Source: a virus (Duplodnaviria; Heunggongvirae; Uroviricota; Caudoviricetes). Taken from it: 7,115 nt of DNA. Below, piece after piece: positions 1-7,115 of the stretch (positions are counted from its first letter, which is position 1; every line of letters begins with the position of its first letter). Under the pieces are notes generated by a model that ran no database searches, was not told the DNA's origin, and worked only from the letters and a program-made list of their open reading frames with translations. Both the position numbers and the translations under genes were made by a program. Location of the stretch: IMG/VR virus record IMGVR_UViG_2728369593_000018. One strand, given 5' to 3'.

Positions 1-2
1 TG

Positions 3-311
3 AATGAAATTAAAGAAATACCAGTAGTACGTGATGAATATGGCTGCTGGACGCATCCTGAATATGAAAAATTCTGTGACGGTCGGGAATATATTTCAAC
101 GGAAGAGTTTAACGCCTGGATGGAGGAAAATAATCTTCAATACGTCCTCTGCTTCAGAGATGAAGGATGTGCTGACCTTGATGCGTGTGATGCTGATATT
201 TCTGCATGGGAACCGGAACGACCAGAGGGCAATGGATGGTTTATTGGTTCAATACATGACACCGAAGATGGCCCGGTTTGTGTATGGCTGAGAAATAAGG
301 TCGAAGCATAA
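3..311 (+). CDS. C-terminal portion of a phage hypothetical protein (5' partial; frame is open to the window start)
   Basis: Frame 3 translates without a stop from position 3 to the TAA at 309-311 (...WTHPEYEKFCDGREYISTEEFNAWMEENN...ISAWEPERPEGNGWFIGSIHD...). The acidic, W-rich, protein-like composition favours this frame over the overlapping 31..291 ORF. Loose resemblance to small DUF551-type phage proteins is from memory only. Confidence 0.45.
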   Translation, partial: NEIKEIPVVRDEYGCWTHPEYEKFCDGREYISTEEFNAWMEENNLQYVLCFRDEGCADLDACDADISAWEPERPEGNGWFIGSIHDTEDGPVCVWLRNKVEA

Positions 312-443
312 AGGCTATAAACCGACTAACAACTAAATACTGAAGATTTAAATCAGAAACGATTTTTATTAAATCCTTAACCGGAGGGATTCCTGCACCC
401 TCAAATCATCAGGAGGCCGCCCGAAAGGGCGGTGGAGATAATA

Positions 444-644
444 ATGGGAATAACTAAAGAACGATTGTTGGAAATAGCAAACCTTAGTGATTGGGCATTA
501 AGTGATGAGAGAATTGTTTCTCCTCATGCTTATGAGTCAGTTACAAGTATAGAAATAACAACAATGGCTAGAATGCTGCTTGGTTATTTCAAAATAGAAA
601 ATAAAAACAGATGGATAGTAATGTTGATATATGTGAGATTTTAG
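444..644 (+). CDS. small hypothetical protein (66 aa)
   Basis: ATG at 444 preceded by GGAG at 435-438; the ORF overlaps the start of the downstream Q-like gene by 34 nt. AT-rich, no recognisable motif, and analogous in position to small ORFs upstream of Q in DLP12-type phages. Confidence 0.3.
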   Translation: MGITKERLLEIANLSDWALSDERIVSPHAYESVTSIEITTMARMLLGYFKIENKNRWIVMLIYVRF

Positions 645-964
645 ACGATTGGGGGGCTTGGGTTGTGGCTGGTAATAGTTCTATTGATTGGCAGGAAATA
701 GCTGATAAATATAAAAATGTTGTTCCTCATGGTAAAAAATCACGTCGTCAGTGCAGCAATGATGAAGGGCGAATTATTGACATTAGTATCCTTAGGTTAG
801 AAAGATATAAGCAACAAGAATATGAGTTAATTGTTGCTCATTTCGTGATTGGTTTATCTCTTCGTGCTATTGCAAAGCAACAAGGATGTTCAGATGGAAC
901 AATTCGTAAAAGATTGCAAAAAGCCTTAGGTTTTTTGACTGGATATATAGCAATTACCAGTTAA
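611..964 (+). CDS. Q-family late-gene antiterminator homologue (QuuD / DLP12-type small Q), 117 aa
   Basis: The translation shares the motifs I recall from E. coli QuuD (127 aa): WGAW near the N-terminus, SRRQCSNDE against SRPQCCDDD, and LIVAHFVIGLSLRAIAKQQGCSDGTIRKRLQKALG against [35 protein letters not shown]. The gene is AT-rich like the surrounding cassette. Confidence 0.6.
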   Translation: MDSNVDICEILDDWGAWVVAGNSSIDWQEIADKYKNVVPHGKKSRRQCSNDEGRIIDISILRLERYKQQEYELIVAHFVIGLSLRAIAKQQGCSDGTIRKRLQKALGFLTGYIAITS

Positions 965-1602
965 GAGTCAGCGGTTTTTTTACCAGTGTAATGGTATAAG
1001 GATACTCCCATGTGTCTTACATGATATGGAAGCGCTGTTGCTGGATGCTTTGTGATACTCTTAAAGCGGAGGGGAGAGCCTTCCGCTTCAATTTCTGCGT
1101 CCGAAACGGTCGTAGAGAAAAATTCTTTCCATTCATTGAATTTTACTGCTGATTTGTCAGACTTTATATAAATTAGAATTCCTCCATGATCGTCACGTGA
1201 CGTACCCGTGCCGTAACGTTCGGTTAGCTGAATCCAGCCATTATGAATAGATTTGGGGCCTCTCCATAATTTTGCTTCACCGATCCATTCGAATTTTCCG
1301 AATTGATGTTTAACTAATAAATCAACGTGACCGCCATGTTGAGTATCATGTTCAACATCATAAAACCTACCTTTCAGGAAATTTTTGATCGACGCTGTTA
1401 GCTCGTCCTCTCCCCACTTAGCATCTTGATAGAAGTGTTTGTCATTTTCTAAATTCTGAATAGCGTCGTCTAAATCTTCATAGAGTTGCTTTACAAAAAT
1501 ATTTTTGTCTGCAGCTAATTTTCTTTGAACCATTCCCCTAAATTCAGGATCCATTCTAATTAATGATTGAAGGTCTGCAGTACAGATGTTTACATCACTC
1601 AT
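961..1602 (-). CDS. hypothetical protein, 213 aa; candidate PD-(D/E)xK-fold nuclease
   Basis: Long ORF in AT-rich DNA. Start chosen at the internal ATG (complement of 1600-1602), which follows GGAGAG on the minus strand. Protein segment ...YDVEHDTQHGGHVDLLVKHQFGKFEWIGEAKLW... has a hydrophobic strand ending in D followed about 15 residues later by E-x-K, the classic restriction-endonuclease-fold arrangement. Its stop overlaps the stop of the convergent Q-like gene (TTAA at 961-964). Confidence 0.6.
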   Translation of the reverse strand: MSDVNICTADLQSLIRMDPEFRGMVQRKLAADKNIFVKQLYEDLDDAIQNLENDKHFYQDAKWGEDELTASIKNFLKGRFYDVEHDTQHGGHVDLLVKHQFGKFEWIGEAKLWRGPKSIHNGWIQLTERYGTGTSRDDHGGILIYIKSDKSAVKFNEWKEFFSTTVSDAEIEAEGSPLRFKSITKHPATALPYHVRHMGVSLYHYTGKKTADS

Positions 1603-1815
1603 GCAGACTCTCCAAAAGACTCGAAGGAGTAAAGTATGGATAAAGATACTGGCTAAAATTATCAACCAATTCGCCAGTTTCTGGATGGTAAAAACTTCCT
1701 AGTGTCTAAAGCATAGGAAATAAGATCATCTTCAACTGGTATTGGTTCTTCCGTTAAATTATCAATGTATTGAAAATGCATATCCAATAGATGTGCTTTA
1801 TAGCTAGATAAATAA

Positions 1816-2025
1816 TCAAGTTGCTTTTATTAGCAGGATATAGTCATCTTTCGTATCAGTTAGATAGGTTAAACCATTGATAAGGGTTTTGTATGTAAAG
1901 TGATTGATATTTTTAGCATCTTTACTAACCAGAAAAAGAAAAAGATCACGACACACACTGCGAACAGGATCATTAAAATCCTGCTCTATTTGCGTGATAA
2001 TGTCGTGATATATACTCTTTTTCAT
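1816..2025 (-). CDS. hypothetical small protein (69 aa), possibly a remnant of a decayed gene
   Basis: ORF on the same strand as the flanking cassette genes. Its ATG overlaps the TGA of an upstream 40-codon ORF in ATGA fashion, and the RBS is weak (AGG). No recognisable motif. Confidence 0.3.
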   Translation of the reverse strand: MKKSIYHDIITQIEQDFNDPVRSVCRDLFLFLVSKDAKNINHFTYKTLINGLTYLTDTKDDYILLIKAT

Positions 2026-2334
2026 TTATGGCCTGATGATCTCGCTCTTCTTTTCTCTTCACAGGACTTAACAGAATCCAATATTTTTTCAACAATAAAT
2101 ATAATCGAATCAATGTTGTTACAGTTCTTCGCTAATTGCTTCATGCAACCTAATTCTAGGATTATCAAGCATTGTCCTTTTTCCTGGTATATTAACTCTA
2201 CTGATAAAATATGTGAAGAACTTTGTGGTAAATCCCAAATTTTTCCAACTTAAACTTTGTCAATATTGGGCTTGCGGACTCTCCACTATGATGGTAAACA
2301 TCTTGACGCAAACACTTTTGACTTGGTTTGAGTT

Positions 2335-3111
2335 TTAAAGAACTTGTATTGCCATCTGAGGTGATAAAAGATACATGAGAAATTCTGCCATCACTTTTTC
2401 GTAAAGATCTTGTATTGAACCAAATAATTCAAGAGGATTGTTTAAAATAACGCCAGCTTCTTTTTTTATAAATTTAGCCACAAGGTATTGTTGAGGCTGT
2501 GATTCACTTCTTGGAAGGATAGATAAATCAATCGTAAGAATTAATATTTTTTCTGCAGGCATTAGCATGATGGTATTAAAGCATTGCGTGACTTGGCGTG
2601 TTTTGCATTTTATTTCTCCACCATTAGCACGTAATTCCATACCCACATCGCTAAGATGTGTTGGGTCAAGCTCTATCACTTCAGTGTAATACGCTTTGGA
2701 TAAAAAAACAGCAGTGTCAATTTGTTTATCACGAATGATATCTTGACATAGTTCAGCAAAATGCAGCTCAGTATCAGCAACTAACAGCTCCTCTCTGGAT
2801 AAAGGAATTGGGTATTTTTCTGAGAAGGGGCTATTGTCCTTTTTCTGATTTGTGAAAATTGTTTGTAATTTTGCTACGTCTTCATCGGTGATTCTATAAA
2901 TAGAAAGTAATCGATTCCCGCTAAAAATTAAACCTTTCCAGAAATCGTCGATTCTGTCTTTTAGGTCGGGATTATGCTGAACTACACTATTTACACGTTC
3001 AATAAAAAGGGGTAATCCTTGGGCCGTTACACCCAGTGATGAACCAAGAAGCTTACGGGTGTTGCGCCAGCCAAAGCGTGAATTGATGTTTTTTACTGTT
3101 TGCTCAAGCAT
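2335..3111 (-). CDS. hypothetical protein, 258 aa, no family recognised
   Basis: Long ORF in AT-rich DNA. ATG at complement of 3109-3111 is preceded by AAGGA with 7-nt spacing on the minus strand; the track's 3117 start is an in-frame GTG two codons upstream. Leading gene of the minus-strand cassette. Confidence 0.7.
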   Translation of the reverse strand: MLEQTVKNINSRFGWRNTRKLLGSSLGVTAQGLPLFIERVNSVVQHNPDLKDRIDDFWKGLIFSGNRLLSIYRITDEDVAKLQTIFTNQKKDNSPFSEKYPIPLSREELLVADTELHFAELCQDIIRDKQIDTAVFLSKAYYTEVIELDPTHLSDVGMELRANGGEIKCKTRQVTQCFNTIMLMPAEKILILTIDLSILPRSESQPQQYLVAKFIKKEAGVILNNPLELFGSIQDLYEKVMAEFLMYLLSPQMAIQVL

Positions 3112-3164
3112 TAACACTTCCTTAATTTTCCCTTAACAATTTAGGGTGCTAAACTTTTTTGCGC

Positions 3165-3193
3165 AGTTTACATAAAAAAATGTGCGTACGCAA
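3165..3193 (-). promoter_or_regulatory. candidate sigma70 promoter for the 258-aa gene, overlapped by a perfect 10-bp palindrome TGCGTACGCA (putative operator)
   Basis: On the minus strand: TTGCGT, 17-nt spacer, TAAACT, about 45 nt upstream of the ATG. The palindrome at 3183-3192 overlaps the -35 element and extends as an imperfect inverted repeat. Confidence 0.3.
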
Positions 3194-3252
3194 AAACTAT
3201 CTAACATGAATGAGCTTTAACCGGGAAATTTGTATATGTTGTGAGCATAAAG

Positions 3253-3282
3253 TTGGCTGAGAAATCTAAAAACGGGTAGAAT
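3253..3282 (+). promoter_or_regulatory. candidate sigma70 promoter for the hok transcript
   Basis: TTGGCT (3253-3258), 18-nt spacer, TAGAAT (3277-3282). This would give a leader of roughly 170 nt before the hok ATG, consistent with the long structured leaders of hok mRNAs. Confidence 0.3.
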
Positions 3283-3459
3283 GACTGCGGGTGCTTGAGG
3301 TCTATCTGTCTCAGGCATGAACACCAAAAGGCAGATAGAGAAAAGCCCCAGTTAACATTACGCGTCGGCAAGACGACTTAACATTAATCTGAGGCCATAT
3401 CTATGCTCTACACACGTAGGTTAGCCTCTTACGTGCCGAAAGGCAAGGAGAAGCAGGCT

Positions 3460-3615
3460 ATGAAGCAGCAAAAGGCGATGTTAATCGCCCTGATCGTCAT
3501 CTGTTTAACCGTCATAATGACGGCACTGGTAACGAGGAAAGACCTCTGCGAGGTACGAATCCGAACCGGCCAGACGGAGGTCGCTGTCTTCACAGCTTAC
3601 GAACCTGAGGAGTAA
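3460..3615 (+). CDS. hokD: Hok/Gef-family type I toxin (HokD/RelF-like), 51 aa
   Basis: Translation MKQQKAMLIALIVICLTVIMTALVTRKDLCEVRIRTGQTEVAVFTAYEPEE is essentially the K-12 HokD sequence as I recall it (one conservative difference). AGGAG lies 9 nt upstream of the ATG and a rho-independent terminator follows. Confidence 0.9.
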   Translation: MKQQKAMLIALIVICLTVIMTALVTRKDLCEVRIRTGQTEVAVFTAYEPEE

Positions 3616-3682
3616 GAGACCAGGCGGGGGAGAATCCCTCGCCACCTCTGATGTGTCAGGCATCCTCAACGCACCCGCACTT

Positions 3683-3709
3683 AACCCGCTTCGGCGGGTT
3701 TTGTTTTTT
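3683..3709 (+). terminator. rho-independent terminator downstream of hok
   Basis: Stem AACCCGC / GCGGGTT with TTCG loop, followed by TTTTGTTTTTT. Confidence 0.6.
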
Positions 3710-3781
3710 CCTGGCATTCTGGTTTACAATTCGCACGCCAGCCTGAACAACTGGCACCTGCTGTGCCAGCAGAGACAACCG

Positions 3782-4060
3782 ATGGCGCACGATACCAAAT
3801 TACACAATTCTGATGATTCTGCCGTCTTTGCCAGCAGGCACGGGCGGCGTTCCCGCACTTTCAAATCTGACTGGTTCCAGCATCCCCCATGCACTGAAGA
3901 ACAGGCCGAGTGGCTAATTCAGTGCTACCGCAGACACGGATACGAGATTAAGAAAGCCCTCAGCCTCGATTATCGTCACTGGATAATCTCCGTCAGGCTT
4001 CCTTACTCCGAACGACCACCGCGTCCGTCCCGCACATTCCAGCAACGCATCTGGAGGTAA
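3782..4060 (+). CDS. small hypothetical protein (92 aa) in the position of rem between hokD and ydfU in Qin
   Basis: ORF MAHDTKLHNSDDSAVFASRHGRRSRTF...; the upstream part of the track ORF (from 3653) overlaps the hok terminator, so the internal ATG at 3782 is preferred. Its stop overlaps the RBS and GTG start of the next gene. Assignment rests on synteny; the sequence itself is not recognised. Confidence 0.45.
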   Translation: MAHDTKLHNSDDSAVFASRHGRRSRTFKSDWFQHPPCTEEQAEWLIQCYRRHGYEIKKALSLDYRHWIISVRLPYSERPPRPSRTFQQRIWR

Positions 4061-4061
4061 C

Positions 4062-5111
4062 GTGCGGGTATTACTTCGACCTGTTCTGGTACCGGAACTC
4101 GGGCTGGTGATCGTTAAGCCGGGCCGTGAATCCATGCCGGTATTCCACAATACCCGGGTACTGGTGGAGCCGGAACCGAAAAGCATGCGTAATCTGCCGT
4201 CCGGGGTCGTTCCTGCCGTTCGCCAGCCGCTGGCGGAGGATAAATCATTACTGCCATTTTTCAGCGACGAACGAGTGATTCGTGCTGCTGGTGGCGCTGG
4301 CGCATTGTCTGACTGGTTACTGCGCCATGTTAAATCCTGCCAGTGGCCACACGGTGATTATCACCACAGTGAAACCGTCATTCACCGTTATGGTACCGGC
4401 GCAATGGTGTTGTGCTGGCACTGCGACAACCAGCTGCGCGACCAGACCTCCGAATCACTCGGGCAACTTGCTCACCAAAACCTGTCTGCATGGATGATTG
4501 ACGTCATACGCCATGCAATGAATGGCTCGCAGGAACGGGAATTATCGCTGGCTGAATTATCCTGGTGGGCGGTCCGCAATCAGGTGGCGGACGCGCTACC
4601 GGAAGCGGTATTACGTCGTTCGCTGGGGTTGCGTGCGGAAAAAATCCGCTCAATGTACCGTGAAAGCGACATCGTACCGGGAGAGCAGACCGCCACCAGC
4701 ATACTGAAACAGCGCACAAAAAATCTTGCGCCGCTGCCTCACGCCTACCAGCAACAGAACCCACCACAGGAAAAGACGGTGGTCAGCATTGCCGTTGATC
4801 CTGAGTCTCCGGAATCTTTCATGAAACGACCTAAACGTCGCCGCTGGGTTAACGAGAAATACACACGCTGGGTGAAGACACAGCCGTGTGCGTGTTGTGG
4901 TAAGCCAGCCGACGATCCCCATCACCTGATTGGTCATGGTCAGGGCGGAATGGGGACAAAATCTCACGATATTTTCACGCTACCGCTGTGTCGGGAGCAT
5001 CACAACGAGCTTCATGCGGATCCGCTGGCGTTCGAAGAAAAGCATGGTTCTCAGGTTGATTTAATTTTTCGTTTTCTTGATCACGCCTTTGCAACTGGCG
5101 TGCTTGGGTAA
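4062..5111 (+). CDS. ydfU: DUF968-type phage protein with C-terminal HNH-like Cys/His motif (YdfU-like, NinG position)
   Basis: 349-aa ORF; GTG start at 4062 with GGAGG 4 nt upstream. C-terminal CACCGKPADDPHHLIGHGQGGMGTKSHDIFTLPLCREHHNELH resembles the Cys/His nuclease motif of NinG/DUF968 proteins. Lies between the Rem-position ORF and rusA, as in lambdoid nin regions. Confidence 0.75.
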   Translation: MRVLLRPVLVPELGLVIVKPGRESMPVFHNTRVLVEPEPKSMRNLPSGVVPAVRQPLAEDKSLLPFFSDERVIRAAGGAGALSDWLLRHVKSCQWPHGDYHHSETVIHRYGTGAMVLCWHCDNQLRDQTSESLGQLAHQNLSAWMIDVIRHAMNGSQERELSLAELSWWAVRNQVADALPEAVLRRSLGLRAEKIRSMYRESDIVPGEQTATSILKQRTKNLAPLPHAYQQQNPPQEKTVVSIAVDPESPESFMKRPKRRRWVNEKYTRWVKTQPCACCGKPADDPHHLIGHGQGGMGTKSHDIFTLPLCREHHNELHADPLAFEEKHGSQVDLIFRFLDHAFATGVLG

Positions 5112-5123
5112 AAGAGGTGACTG

Positions 5124-5483
5124 ATGCTCATAGATTTGGTTTTACCTTACCCGCCGACGGTGAACACTTACTGGCGACGCCGTGGCAGCACATATTTTGT
5201 ATCAAAAGTCGGTGAGCGTTATCGCCGTGATGTGGCGCTTATTGTTCGCCAGCAGCAACTGAAATTAAACCTGTCCGGAAGGCCGGCAATAGAAATTATT
5301 GCAGAGCCACCGGATAAGCGCCGTCGTGACCTGGACAATATCCTGAAGGCACCACTGGATGTACTGACGCATGCGGGGCTGCTCATAGACGACGAGCAGT
5401 TTGATGAAATTAATATTGTGCGCGGTCAGCTTGTTCCTGGTGGGCGGTTGGGGATAAAAATCACAGAACTGGAGTATGCATGA
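5124..5483 (+). CDS. rusA: RusA-family Holliday junction resolvase
   Basis: 119-aa ORF with AGAGG RBS; LPYPPTVNTYWRRRG and PDKRRRDLDNILKAPLDVL match the RusA signature as recalled (PDRRRRDLDNLQKA in E. coli RusA). Its stop overlaps the next ATG (ATGA). Confidence 0.9.
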   Translation: MLIDLVLPYPPTVNTYWRRRGSTYFVSKVGERYRRDVALIVRQQQLKLNLSGRPAIEIIAEPPDKRRRDLDNILKAPLDVLTHAGLLIDDEQFDEINIVRGQLVPGGRLGIKITELEYA

Positions 5484-6169
5484 ATAACCAGTATTTACAG
5501 TTTGTTCGTGAGCAACTCATGATTGCCACCGCCGATTTGAGTGGATCAACAAAAGGGCAGCTTGAGGCCTGGCAGGAGAATGCCATGTTTGATACAGGGC
5601 GTTACAGGCGTAAAAAAATCCGGTACCGCGATGAAGTGACTGGAAAAATGATAACGCGGGATAATCCACCAATCCCGGGAAAGCAATCGCTGGCGAAGGG
5701 GGCGTCAATTCCTCTCGTCAGTCCGGTTGAGTTTTTGACATCATCGTGGCGGCGGGCTGTTCTGTCTCTTGAAGAACATCATAAAGCCTGGTTGTTGTGG
5801 TGTTACAGCGGGAGTATTTGTTGGGAATATCAGATCGCGATAACACAGTGGGCGTGGAATGAATTTAATACTCAATCCGGTACCAGAAAAATTGCTGGGA
5901 AAACGCAGGAACGCCTGAAAAAATTAATCTGGCTGGCGGCGCAGGCAGTAAAAGCAGAACTTTTTGGTGGGGAAGGTTATGAATATCAGGAGCTGGCATT
6001 ACTGGCGGGAGTGACAACTAAAAACTGGTCCAAAACATTTACTCGTCACTGGGTTGCAATGAAACACATTTTTCACCGACTGGATAGTGAGGCTTTATTA
6101 TTTGTAATGAGAACACGTTCAAAACAAAAGGCGGCATTTTCAAAGCAAAGTGTTGCAAAAGTAGATTGA
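5480..6169 (+). CDS. putative late-gene antiterminator Q (large, phage-82 / QuuQ-like type), 229 aa
   Basis: Position immediately after rusA and immediately before a promoter, short leader, terminator and tRNA cluster, as for Q in Stx phages and in Qin (ydfU then quuQ). GGAG lies 5 nt upstream of the ATG. The call rests on synteny and size; the sequence is not recognised from memory. Confidence 0.5.
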   Translation: MNNQYLQFVREQLMIATADLSGSTKGQLEAWQENAMFDTGRYRRKKIRYRDEVTGKMITRDNPPIPGKQSLAKGASIPLVSPVEFLTSSWRRAVLSLEEHHKAWLLWCYSGSICWEYQIAITQWAWNEFNTQSGTRKIAGKTQERLKKLIWLAAQAVKAELFGGEGYEYQELALLAGVTTKNWSKTFTRHWVAMKHIFHRLDSEALLFVMRTRSKQKAAFSKQSVAKVD

Positions 6170-6181
6170 AAGGCATATATT
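6153..6181 (+). promoter_or_regulatory. pR'-like late promoter
   Basis: TTGCAA (6153-6158), 17-nt spacer, TATATT (6176-6181), overlapping the 3' end of the Q-position gene and about 55 nt upstream of a strong intrinsic terminator, like the lambdoid pR'/tR' arrangement. Confidence 0.4.
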
Positions 6182-6234
6182 TCATGCAAATCTGATATTT
6201 TGCCGATTTTGTACGTGATGGCAAAATCAAACAA

Positions 6235-6260
6235 AACCCGCCCACAAGCGGGTTTTTTTG
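6235..6260 (+). terminator. tR'-like rho-independent terminator
   Basis: Stem AACCCGC / GCGGGTT with CCACAA loop followed by seven T residues. Confidence 0.6.
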
Positions 6261-6326
6261 TGCCACTTATCTCGGATAGACATGGTGAATGCGCTGGTGG
6301 AGGAGATAAGGGTGATTTTTGTATGC

Positions 6327-6356
6327 TTGCAACATTGATTTTCGTAACGTTATTAT
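6327..6356 (+). promoter_or_regulatory. candidate promoter for the tRNA cluster
   Basis: TTGCAA (6327-6332), 18-nt spacer, TATTAT (6351-6356), about 10 nt upstream of the first tRNA. Confidence 0.3.
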
Positions 6357-6366
6357 CCTGCGCCCG

Positions 6367-6441
6367 GCCCTTTAGCTCAGTGGTGAGAGCGAGCGACTCA
6401 TAATCGCCAGGTCGCTGGTTCAAATCCAGCAAGGGCCACCA
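6367..6441 (+). tRNA. ileZ: tRNA-Ile2-like (anticodon CAU; ileZ/ileX-type), with a 6-nt T-loop
   Basis: Perfect acceptor stem GGCCCTT / AAGGGCC, D-arm GCTC-AGTGGTGA-GAGC, anticodon loop CTCATAA, encoded CCA. Closely resembles E. coli ileX as recalled, except the T-loop reads TCAAAT (6 nt) where ileX has TTCAAGT. Confidence 0.8.
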
Positions 6442-6442
6442 A

Positions 6443-6518
6443 CCGCCACTAGCCATCAGGAAAGAGCGTCAACCCTTTAAGTTGAGTGTGCGAGGTTCGA
6501 GTCCCCGGTGGTGGTCCA
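6443..6518 (+). tRNA. tRNA-like sequence in the argN position; degenerate D-stem and unusual anticodon loop CCTTTAA (possible pseudo-tRNA)
   Basis: Acceptor stem CCGCCAC / GTGGTGG (one G-U), T-arm CGAGG-TTCGAGT-CCCCG (one mismatch), anticodon stem TCAAC / GTTGA, encoded CCA. The D-stem pairs only 2 of 4 positions and position 33 is C rather than the near-universal U; anticodon would read UUU. Confidence 0.45.
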
Positions 6519-6533
6519 TTATCGGTATTTCTG

Positions 6534-6607
6534 CGTTGTTAGCTCAGCAGGACAGAGCAATTGCCTTCTAAGCAATCGGTCACTGGTTCGACTCCAGTAC
6601 AACGCGC
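6534..6607 (+). tRNA. argO: tRNA-Arg (anticodon UCU; argO/argU-type)
   Basis: Perfect acceptor stem GCGTTGT / ACAACGC, D-arm GCTC-AGCAGGACA-GAGC, anticodon loop CTTCTAA, T-arm ACTGG-TTCGACT-CCAGT. The 3' CCA is not encoded. Confidence 0.85.
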
Positions 6608-6622
6608 TACACTTATTTTCCC

Positions 6623-6648
6623 GGCTCGCTTTTGCGGGCCTTTTTTTT
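6623..6648 (+). terminator. rho-independent terminator after the tRNA cluster
   Basis: Stem GGCTCGC / GCGGGCC (one G-U) with TTTT loop followed by eight T residues. Confidence 0.6.
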
Positions 6649-6736
6649 AAATGTCTCACAATTCAGACGGTTGACAGTTGTCTGTTTTGCGGGGAGTTTG
6701 TTAAAAGAAACTGGCATGGTGAATCCCCCTGTGCGG

Positions 6737-6755
6737 CTGTCTCTTATACACAAAT
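6737..6755 (+). repeat. IS50-like terminal inverted repeat (left end)
   Basis: CTGTCTCTTATACACAAAT compared with the 19-bp Tn5 end sequences; immediately followed by a 9-bp stem hairpin CAAATCCCC-ACCC-GGGGATTTG. Confidence 0.7.
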
Positions 6756-6901
6756 CCCCACCCGGGGATTTGTGATGTCTGTCAGTCTGCTTTAGGGGGA
6801 CTCTTTCCATCCGGTAGTTTCCTTCCTCCCCGGCAGCGATTTTTTGAACTTTTTCCTCACCCGTTGATCTTCTCTTATATTTCATTTTCTTCGGGTCTGT
6901 T

Positions 6902-7115
6902 ATGGTACTTTCTGATTGTTATTCATGGGCTAACGAGCAGTTTGGACATGCCCGTCTCGGTGATCCGCGTCGTACACGACGCCTTGTGTCACTGGCCTCT
7001 TCTCTCGCTCAGCATGCAGGTCTTTCTATTGTGAAATCATCCCAGTCCCTGCTCAGGTTGAAGGTGCGTACCGCCTGATACGTAACCCGTCTGTGTCCCC
7101 GCAAGCCATTGCCGA
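6902..7115 (+). pseudogene. IS50-like transposase N-terminal region with an apparent single-base frameshift (3' partial)
   Basis: Frame A gives MVLSDCYSWANEQFGHARLGDPRRTRRLVSLASSLAQHAGLSIVKSSQS, matching Tn5 Tnp ...DWAKSVFSSAALGDPRRTARLVNVAAQLAKYSGKSITISS..., then hits TGA at 7076-7078. The homology continues in another frame as PAQVEGAYRLIRNPSVSPQAIA, matching Tn5 ...EAMQEGAYRFIRNPNVSAEAI. The shift maps to the C-run near 7046-7050. Confidence 0.6.

Follow-up and report, generated by a model that had tools for sequence, protein, structure and literature searches.

ISEc13 interrupts an STnc100-family small RNA gene downstream of the toxin position in the late region of an stx-negative lambdoid prophage

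The virus record IMGVR_UViG_2728369593_000018 comprises 7,115 nucleotides of DNA, here called the window, whose right-hand part runs from a late antiterminator gene, Q, through a promoter, a leader and a cluster of transfer RNA (tRNA)-type genes into an IS50-like insertion sequence (IS). We identify the window as late-regulatory DNA of a lambdoid prophage negative for the Shiga toxin genes (stx), namely PP6 of the enteropathogenic Escherichia coli (EPEC) O127:H6 strain E2348/69 or a very close relative, and find that the IS is the beginning of an ISEc13 copy lying within a small RNA (sRNA) gene of the STnc100 family. The account that we regard as highly probable is that ISEc13 entered an STnc100-family hairpin of an stx-negative, PP6-type late region by simple insertion, at a site decided by the target preference of the element together with the tolerance of the region for insertions. 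The features on which this account draws are collected in Table 1.

The window corresponds to the complete draft contig AKYH01000108.1 (assembly GCA_001605745.1) in reversed orientation and ends inside the IS. Over positions 1-6745 it is 99.7% identical (6731/6751) to the E2348/69 chromosome (NC_011601), where its counterpart spans ~1,436,367-1,443,108, a region assigned to prophage PP6 in Table S6 of Pearl Mizrahi et al. 2021 (PMC8550237). The locus is thus already known, as a published, annotated and toxin-free prophage of an stx-negative EPEC strain. PP6 shares with the window its genes, its tRNAs and an ISEc13 at the identical base; it differs in the opposite orientation of the IS and in 15 single-base insertions or deletions (indels) and 5 substitutions, all of which proved private to the window when ten related loci were compared. 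These indels are concentrated in the AT-rich part at 600-3400, with none between 3378 and 6338, and they break several open reading frames (ORFs) that are intact in the related loci. Such a profile has the appearance of draft-read error, not of natural divergence, and conclusions drawn at the level of ORFs from the draft contig need comparison with E2348/69.

The IS opens with the terminal repeat CTGTCTCTTATACACAAAT at 6737-6755, which resembles an outside end and begins 88 nt past the T-run of the tRNA terminator. The N-terminus of a Tn5-type transposase (PF14706) is encoded from 6902, and a 1-base deletion near 7049 breaks the frame and cuts the ORF to 58 residues; given the error profile of the contig, this frameshift is probably a read error and not real. 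A look-up of the 58-residue product found no record of it. The transposase of the reference ISEc13 has 457 residues, carries both PF14706 and PF01609, and is a full-length homolog of the Tn5 transposase (E = 7e-83). At its other end the reference copy reads CTGTCTCTTGATCAGATCT, which we take to be equal to the inside end of IS50, just as we take CTGTCTCTTATACACAAAT to resemble the outside end. ISEc13 accordingly shares with IS50/Tn5 a homologous full-length transposase and IS50-like end repeats, whereas it duplicates 8 bp of target instead of 9 bp and, unlike IS50/Tn5, appears markedly to prefer targets that lie between a C-run and a G-run. The papers found for ISEc13 mention it only in passing.

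In E2348/69 the element measures 1,550 bp and is flanked on both sides by a perfect 8-bp duplication, CTGTGCGG. Duplications of the same length accompany ISEc13 at three sites outside the window. Three relatives with an identical Q protein (L008, L011 and L012) retain the uninterrupted site, which reads ...GAATCCCCCTGTGCGGAGGGGCAATC..., and are contiguous across it without stx. Because the duplication is intact and the empty-site relatives are contiguous, the insertion was simple and removed nothing; if the source strain carries such an insertion at this target, its right junction would read CTGTGCGG and then AGGGGCAATC.

The position of the IS relative to stx was mapped by aligning the empty-site locus L008 with the Stx2a phage F349 (L004). 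The match across the tRNA module ends at the terminator, where L008 9168 pairs with L004 5324, and resumes with L008 9171-9390, which matches L004 6658-6899, the segment right after stxB; the esterase genes match further on. Between these blocks, L004 5325-6657 is the F349 stxAB cassette. By this alignment stxAB is inserted sequence at the point that corresponds to window 6649-6651, and ISEc13 lies ~87 bp further downstream. The original prediction had let the IS occupy or interrupt the late-transcript slot that carries stx in toxigenic phages, a reading that holds only in a loose sense. The mapping contradicts a location at the toxin position, and the 8-bp duplication and the contiguous, stx-free empty sites contradict a replacement of toxin genes: nothing was displaced. 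No stx was found in the window, in the E2348/69 locus or in the empty-site relatives, in which the sRNA gene follows immediately on the tRNA terminator. Since ISEc13 lies outside the toxin position and replaced no toxin genes, the window says nothing on the gain or loss of stx. The site of ISEc13 is unrelated to toxin-gene loss or replacement and represents an ordinary insertion in a known moron region.

Beyond the IS, E2348/69 carries the 3′ part of the sRNA gene, a convergent sRNA, an esterase gene with DUF1737, SASA and DUF6645 domains (nanS-p-like), and genes for a holin, a DUF1327 protein, a lysozyme and Rz. The IS there sits between the late promoter pR′ and the esterase and lysis genes, which bears out the late-operon context that had been predicted for it. 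Stx2 phages (Stx2a_F349 and the 933W/Sp5 type) share this late order of Q, pR′, the terminator tR′, tRNAs, sRNA, esterase and lysis genes, and their STnc100-family sRNA gene and esterase are homologous to those of this locus. The locus differs from them in the absence of stxAB, in an 82-type Q, in a degenerate argN position and in the IS that splits the sRNA gene.

The sRNA gene was recognized from its intact counterparts. The empty site in L008 (9204-9394) scores 139 bits over its full length against the STnc100 model RF02076, whose gathering threshold is 47 bits, and intact copies are also present in M1/5 (140 bits) and in the Stx2a phage just after stxB (158 bits). For the 3′ part left in E2348/69 the score is 75.5 bits, and the 52-nt fragment in the window, which is too short to score alone, matches L008 base for base. 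ISEc13 splits the hairpin CCCCC-UGUGCGG-AGGGG, which forms part of the STnc100 family consensus; uninterrupted, the target reads CCCCCTGTGCGGAGGGG. According to Tree et al. 2014 (PMC4104026), this region is a site at which morons insert, with sRNAs that converge 3′ of stx2B, and a 2026 bioRxiv preprint by Zhu et al. links the PasD sRNAs of E2348/69 to STnc100. PMC8550237 lists the Hfq-bound sRNA candidate E2348C_1409.E2348C_1408.IGR on the minus strand at NC_011601 1,444,797-1,444,978. This candidate (L001 9953-10134) lies just past the IS and converges on the truncated STnc100-family gene, and the convergent pair in E2348/69 has the layout reported 3′ of stx2B. The locus shares with the systems of Tree et al. 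and of PasD-STnc100 the position, the plus-strand STnc100-family gene and the convergent Hfq-bound sRNA, and differs from them in that the plus-strand sRNA gene is here interrupted 52 nt from its start. The parts consulted of PMC4104026, PMC8550237 and Zhu et al. 2026 contain no mention of an interruption of the STnc100 family by ISEc13.

To characterize where ISEc13 inserts, we collected the flanks of its ends from 53 metagenome contigs (L016-L068) and from E. coli loci, which gave 26 distinct flanks from ~14 independent sites. Positions -13 to -10 outside the ends are C in 21-23 of the 26 distinct flanks. Three sites that are visible in full have the form CCCC-[8-bp duplication]-GGGG, and the PP6 site carries one extra base before its G-run. 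The motif CCCC-N8-GGGG occurs twice in the 11.9-kb empty-site locus (0.12 occurrences expected), at the ISEc13 insertion site and in the terminator hairpin of the sRNA. From these alignments ISEc13 appears to have a marked preference for CCCC-N8-GGGG-like targets; no description of a C-run preference was found in the ten papers that came up for the element. ISEc13 targets are often terminator-like hairpins, as between mog and satP in E2348/69 (L015 2500-2520 and 4055-4085). A further observation concerns UTI89 (L070, NC_007946 1,120,468-1,122,350), in which a diverged tRNA-Arg, a 5′ fragment of the sRNA gene and an ISEc13-like element lie beside the iro (salmochelin) island. In this relic the ISEc13-like element occupies the identical position of the hairpin, and its right side has neither a duplication nor the remainder of the sRNA gene.

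The region has also received other insertions. Near-identical sister prophages (L007, L009, L010 and L013) carry IS66-family elements at the equivalents of window 6704 (duplication TTTGTTAA), 6687 and 6332, and in the PPompW phages ISEc20 follows the tRNA terminator (~6646), and the terminase genes come immediately after it, without intervening lysis genes (L003 7210-8668). The accumulation of IS elements and morons downstream of pR′ is already known. The best reading of the site is accordingly a moron region tolerant of IS elements combined with a specific target of ISEc13. Several points weigh against the account as a whole. The window itself shows the left junction alone, the duplication and the downstream genes being known from E2348/69. 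The apparent target preference was drawn from ~14 sites in metagenome contigs. With three IS66-family insertions nearby, the preference of ISEc13 by itself is insufficient to account for the accumulation of IS elements here. Finally, the IS points the other way in all other genomes examined, and its insertion in the source strain may be a separate event.

If the IS had replaced or deleted stxAB in what was once an Stx phage, the close match of the tRNA module to Stx2 phages and the location of the IS in the same intergenic region would be expected; we hold this to be extremely improbable and reject it on the target duplication that remains intact around the IS in E2348/69 and on the empty-site relatives, which pass from tRNA terminator to sRNA gene with no stx remnant. 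The stx junction, moreover, lies upstream of the IS, and the Q gene is 82-type and occurs in no Stx phage of the phage collection. Alternatively, ISEc13 might have no meaningful target specificity and have landed neutrally and all but randomly in intergenic DNA that is not essential. Elements of unrelated IS families have inserted at least four further times within ~400 bp in the sister prophages, and the region is known to tolerate morons (PMC4104026), both of which suit such a hit. We nevertheless consider it distinctly unlikely in view of the strong C-run signature outside the ISEc13 ends, the rarity of CCCC-N8-GGGG in the locus, and the UTI89-type genomes, in which an ISEc13-type element occupies the identical position of a diverged hairpin (92.9% identical junction).

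Selection could also have favored the insertion, either by silencing the STnc100-family sRNA or by breaking the link between pR′ and the lysis genes, which would domesticate the prophage. Near-identical prophages have three independent IS insertions (6687, 6704 and 6736) within the 52 nt at the start of the sRNA gene, which would agree with this, as would the PPompW phages, in which no lysis genes separate ISEc20 from the terminase genes. Against it, an IS is not expected to stop a Q-modified polymerase, sister strains still have empty sites, and target preference and regional tolerance account for the pattern; we judge selection to be highly unlikely. Simple insertion at a preferred target in a tolerant region stays the account that we favor.

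The orientation of the element calls for separate consideration. In the window the flank is joined to the outside-end-like terminus, and the transposase gene runs with the late transcript; in all E2348/69-type assemblies the same base is joined to the inside-end-like terminus, a junction that 833 of the 5,426 complete E. coli genomes share, among them UTI89-type strains with their relic at the iro island. The exact flank-to-IS junction of the window has no match among GTDB representatives, IMG/VR or metagenome contigs, a 130-bp query across it is covered by none of the 5,426 complete genomes, and the IS end by itself has no match among GTDB representatives. Homologous recombination between IS copies was considered as a source of the flip and rejected, as the flank would keep the same IS end. 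Four origins are possible: an independent insertion into the symmetric target, a second copy arranged head to head, an inversion in situ and a chimeric contig end.

An artefact of draft assembly would confine the anomaly to the last 379 bp and leave the true arrangement as in E2348/69. This is possible, although we find it rather doubtful. The contig ends inside an IS of ~30 copies, it carries the private indels described above, and its junction is missing from every collection searched. By contrast, the two IS ends share 9-10 bp only, too short for a mis-join by the assembler; the 379 bp correspond to roughly one read anchored in the unique flank; and a symmetric target would permit both orientations. 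A bolder proposal is that ISEc13 is target-specific for CCCC-N8-GGGG hairpins and has repeatedly hit the STnc100-family stem-loop beside the stx moron site, the unique orientation (0/5,426 against 833 of the opposite) being the trace of a genuine second event that the E2348/69 lineage underwent by re-insertion, head-to-head copy or in-situ inversion. Taken as a whole we think this unlikely; if it were true, the second event would switch the Q-driven reading of the transposase gene between sense and antisense.

Upstream of the insertion, the window has the layout of a lambdoid late leader. The original prediction had read a Q gene, a promoter with a short leader and terminator, three tRNA-type genes with their own terminator, and an IS50-like end, and all of these were recovered at or near the positions it gave. 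The Q protein is 75.5% identical to phage 82 Q over its full length, and its full-length matches to PF06323 and phage 82 Q, with a predicted promoter and terminator downstream, agree with a lambdoid Q of the phage-82 type. It has no match in PDB and none in NCBIfam. The Q types usual in Stx phages are those of 933W and 21, and on these matches the Q of the window is classed as 82-type and not as a Stx-phage type. This Q occurs in no Stx phage of the phage collection: the five matching "Stx2a-converting" records are composites, and their Q belongs to a neighboring PPompW prophage. The Stx-phage-like architecture that had been proposed consequently holds for the lambdoid late leader and for the tRNA set and fails for Q.

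The candidate pR′ consists of a -35 element, TTGCAA (6153-6158), a 17-nt spacer and a -10 element, TATATT (6176-6181), and transcription would start near 6188. A -10-like TGaTATTTT at 6194-6201 (~+7 to +14) fits a candidate sigma-dependent pause element, by analogy with the known Q82 mechanism. The tR′ hairpin folds with -23.3 kcal/mol (z = -2.85). Phage 434 has a Q82-like module with an annotated terminator, and promoter, early transcribed region and terminator are all conserved between it and the window.

Positions 6326-6646 and the ileZ-argN-argO module of Stx2 phages are 94% identical, and because of this identity the listed features are not a chance pattern. The tRNA cluster is judged on this identity to be a true homolog of the Stx-phage set, as had been predicted. 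In the alignment ileZ shows zero differences from that of the Stx2a phage F349, with the same Rfam score in both. In Rfam the gene at the argN position stays under 16 bits, where argN of a Stx2 phage reaches 43 bits, and it is not annotated by the Prokaryotic Genome Annotation Pipeline (PGAP) in E2348/69. Its anticodon is UUU instead of UCG, the changes in the anticodon stem are paired (TCAGC/GCTGG to TCAAC/GTTGA), and its D-stem is damaged by a 1-nt deletion. The same degenerate gene is common to the PPompW phages and E2348/69, and it is either a decaying tRNA or one that has switched its anticodon.

Table 1 Features of the late region of the window (a point marks features given without strand).
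Feature	Position	Strand	Basis and remarks
rusA (Holliday-junction resolvase)	5124..5483	+	PF05866; annotated as RusA in E2348/69; overlaps start of Q
Late antiterminator Q, phage-82 type, 229 aa	5480..6169	+	PF06323, 305 bits
Candidate late promoter pR′	6153..6181	+	Consensus scan; conserved with phage 434 Q82-like module
tR′ intrinsic terminator	6233..6260	+	Stem ACCCGC/GCGGGT and T7; ends ~73-nt leader
Promoter-like site before tRNA genes	6327..6356	+	Conserved in Stx2 phage; private 1-nt spacer insertion in window
tRNA with CAU anticodon (ileZ)	6366..6441	+	ARAGORN; Rfam 72.5 bits; annotated as tRNA-Ile in E2348/69
Degenerate tRNA-like gene, argN position	6443..6518	+	ARAGORN only, called Lys-UUU
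tRNA-Arg (UCU), argO homolog	6533..6607	+	ARAGORN; Rfam 68.1 bits; alignment
Intrinsic terminator after tRNA cluster	6623..6648	+	Upstream-of-stx homology with Stx phages stops here
Equivalent of stxAB cassette junctions	6649..6651	.	L008 9168/L004 5324; L008 9171/L004 6658
5′ 52 nt of STnc100-family sRNA gene	6685..6736	+	Matches L008; cut by ISEc13
Left copy of target duplication CTGTGCGG	6729..6736	.	Both copies seen in E2348/69; left copy alone visible in window
ISEc13 (IS4 family, IS50-like), first 379 bp	6737..7115	+	99.5% identical to E2348/69 copy, but inverted

Several features lie further upstream in the window. A second antiterminator gene, of lambda Q type (444-965; PF06530, 173 aa in E2348/69), precedes the 82-type Q by 4.5 kb; no late genes follow it, and in the window it falls into two ORFs through a private 1-nt deletion at ~602. 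Between this gene and hok/sok, an AT-rich cassette (33-38% GC) of three genes occupies 962-3112 on the minus strand (L001 2484-4634); the products have 197, 142 and 363 aa in E2348/69, and the genes are broken in the window by private indels. They have no Pfam match and, in PADLOC, a marginal hit only and nothing convincing; the cassette may be a moron or a defence cassette. The hok/sok type I toxin-antitoxin system at 3289-3615 comprises sok (Rfam 108.9 bits, 3289-3465) and a hok/gef ORF (3403-3615), and four private indels reduce the sok score from the 117.1 bits reached in E2348/69.

In the scheme that we propose, the phage-82-type Q would load onto RNA polymerase at pR′, and the Q-loaded polymerase would read through tR′, the tRNA module with its terminator, the sRNA gene, the esterase gene and the lysis cassette. 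ISEc13, as a Tn5-like cut-and-paste element, would have entered the loop side of the C5-N7-G4 hairpin by simple insertion, its CCCC-N8-GGGG-like preference and the insertion tolerance of the moron region being the two likely determinants of the site. We infer that Q-dependent transcription would continue across the IS, that the full-length sRNA would be lost and that expression of the lysis genes would change little. Truncated copies of the STnc100/PasD type still score as hits, a point of relevance to the mapping of prophage sRNA repertoires.

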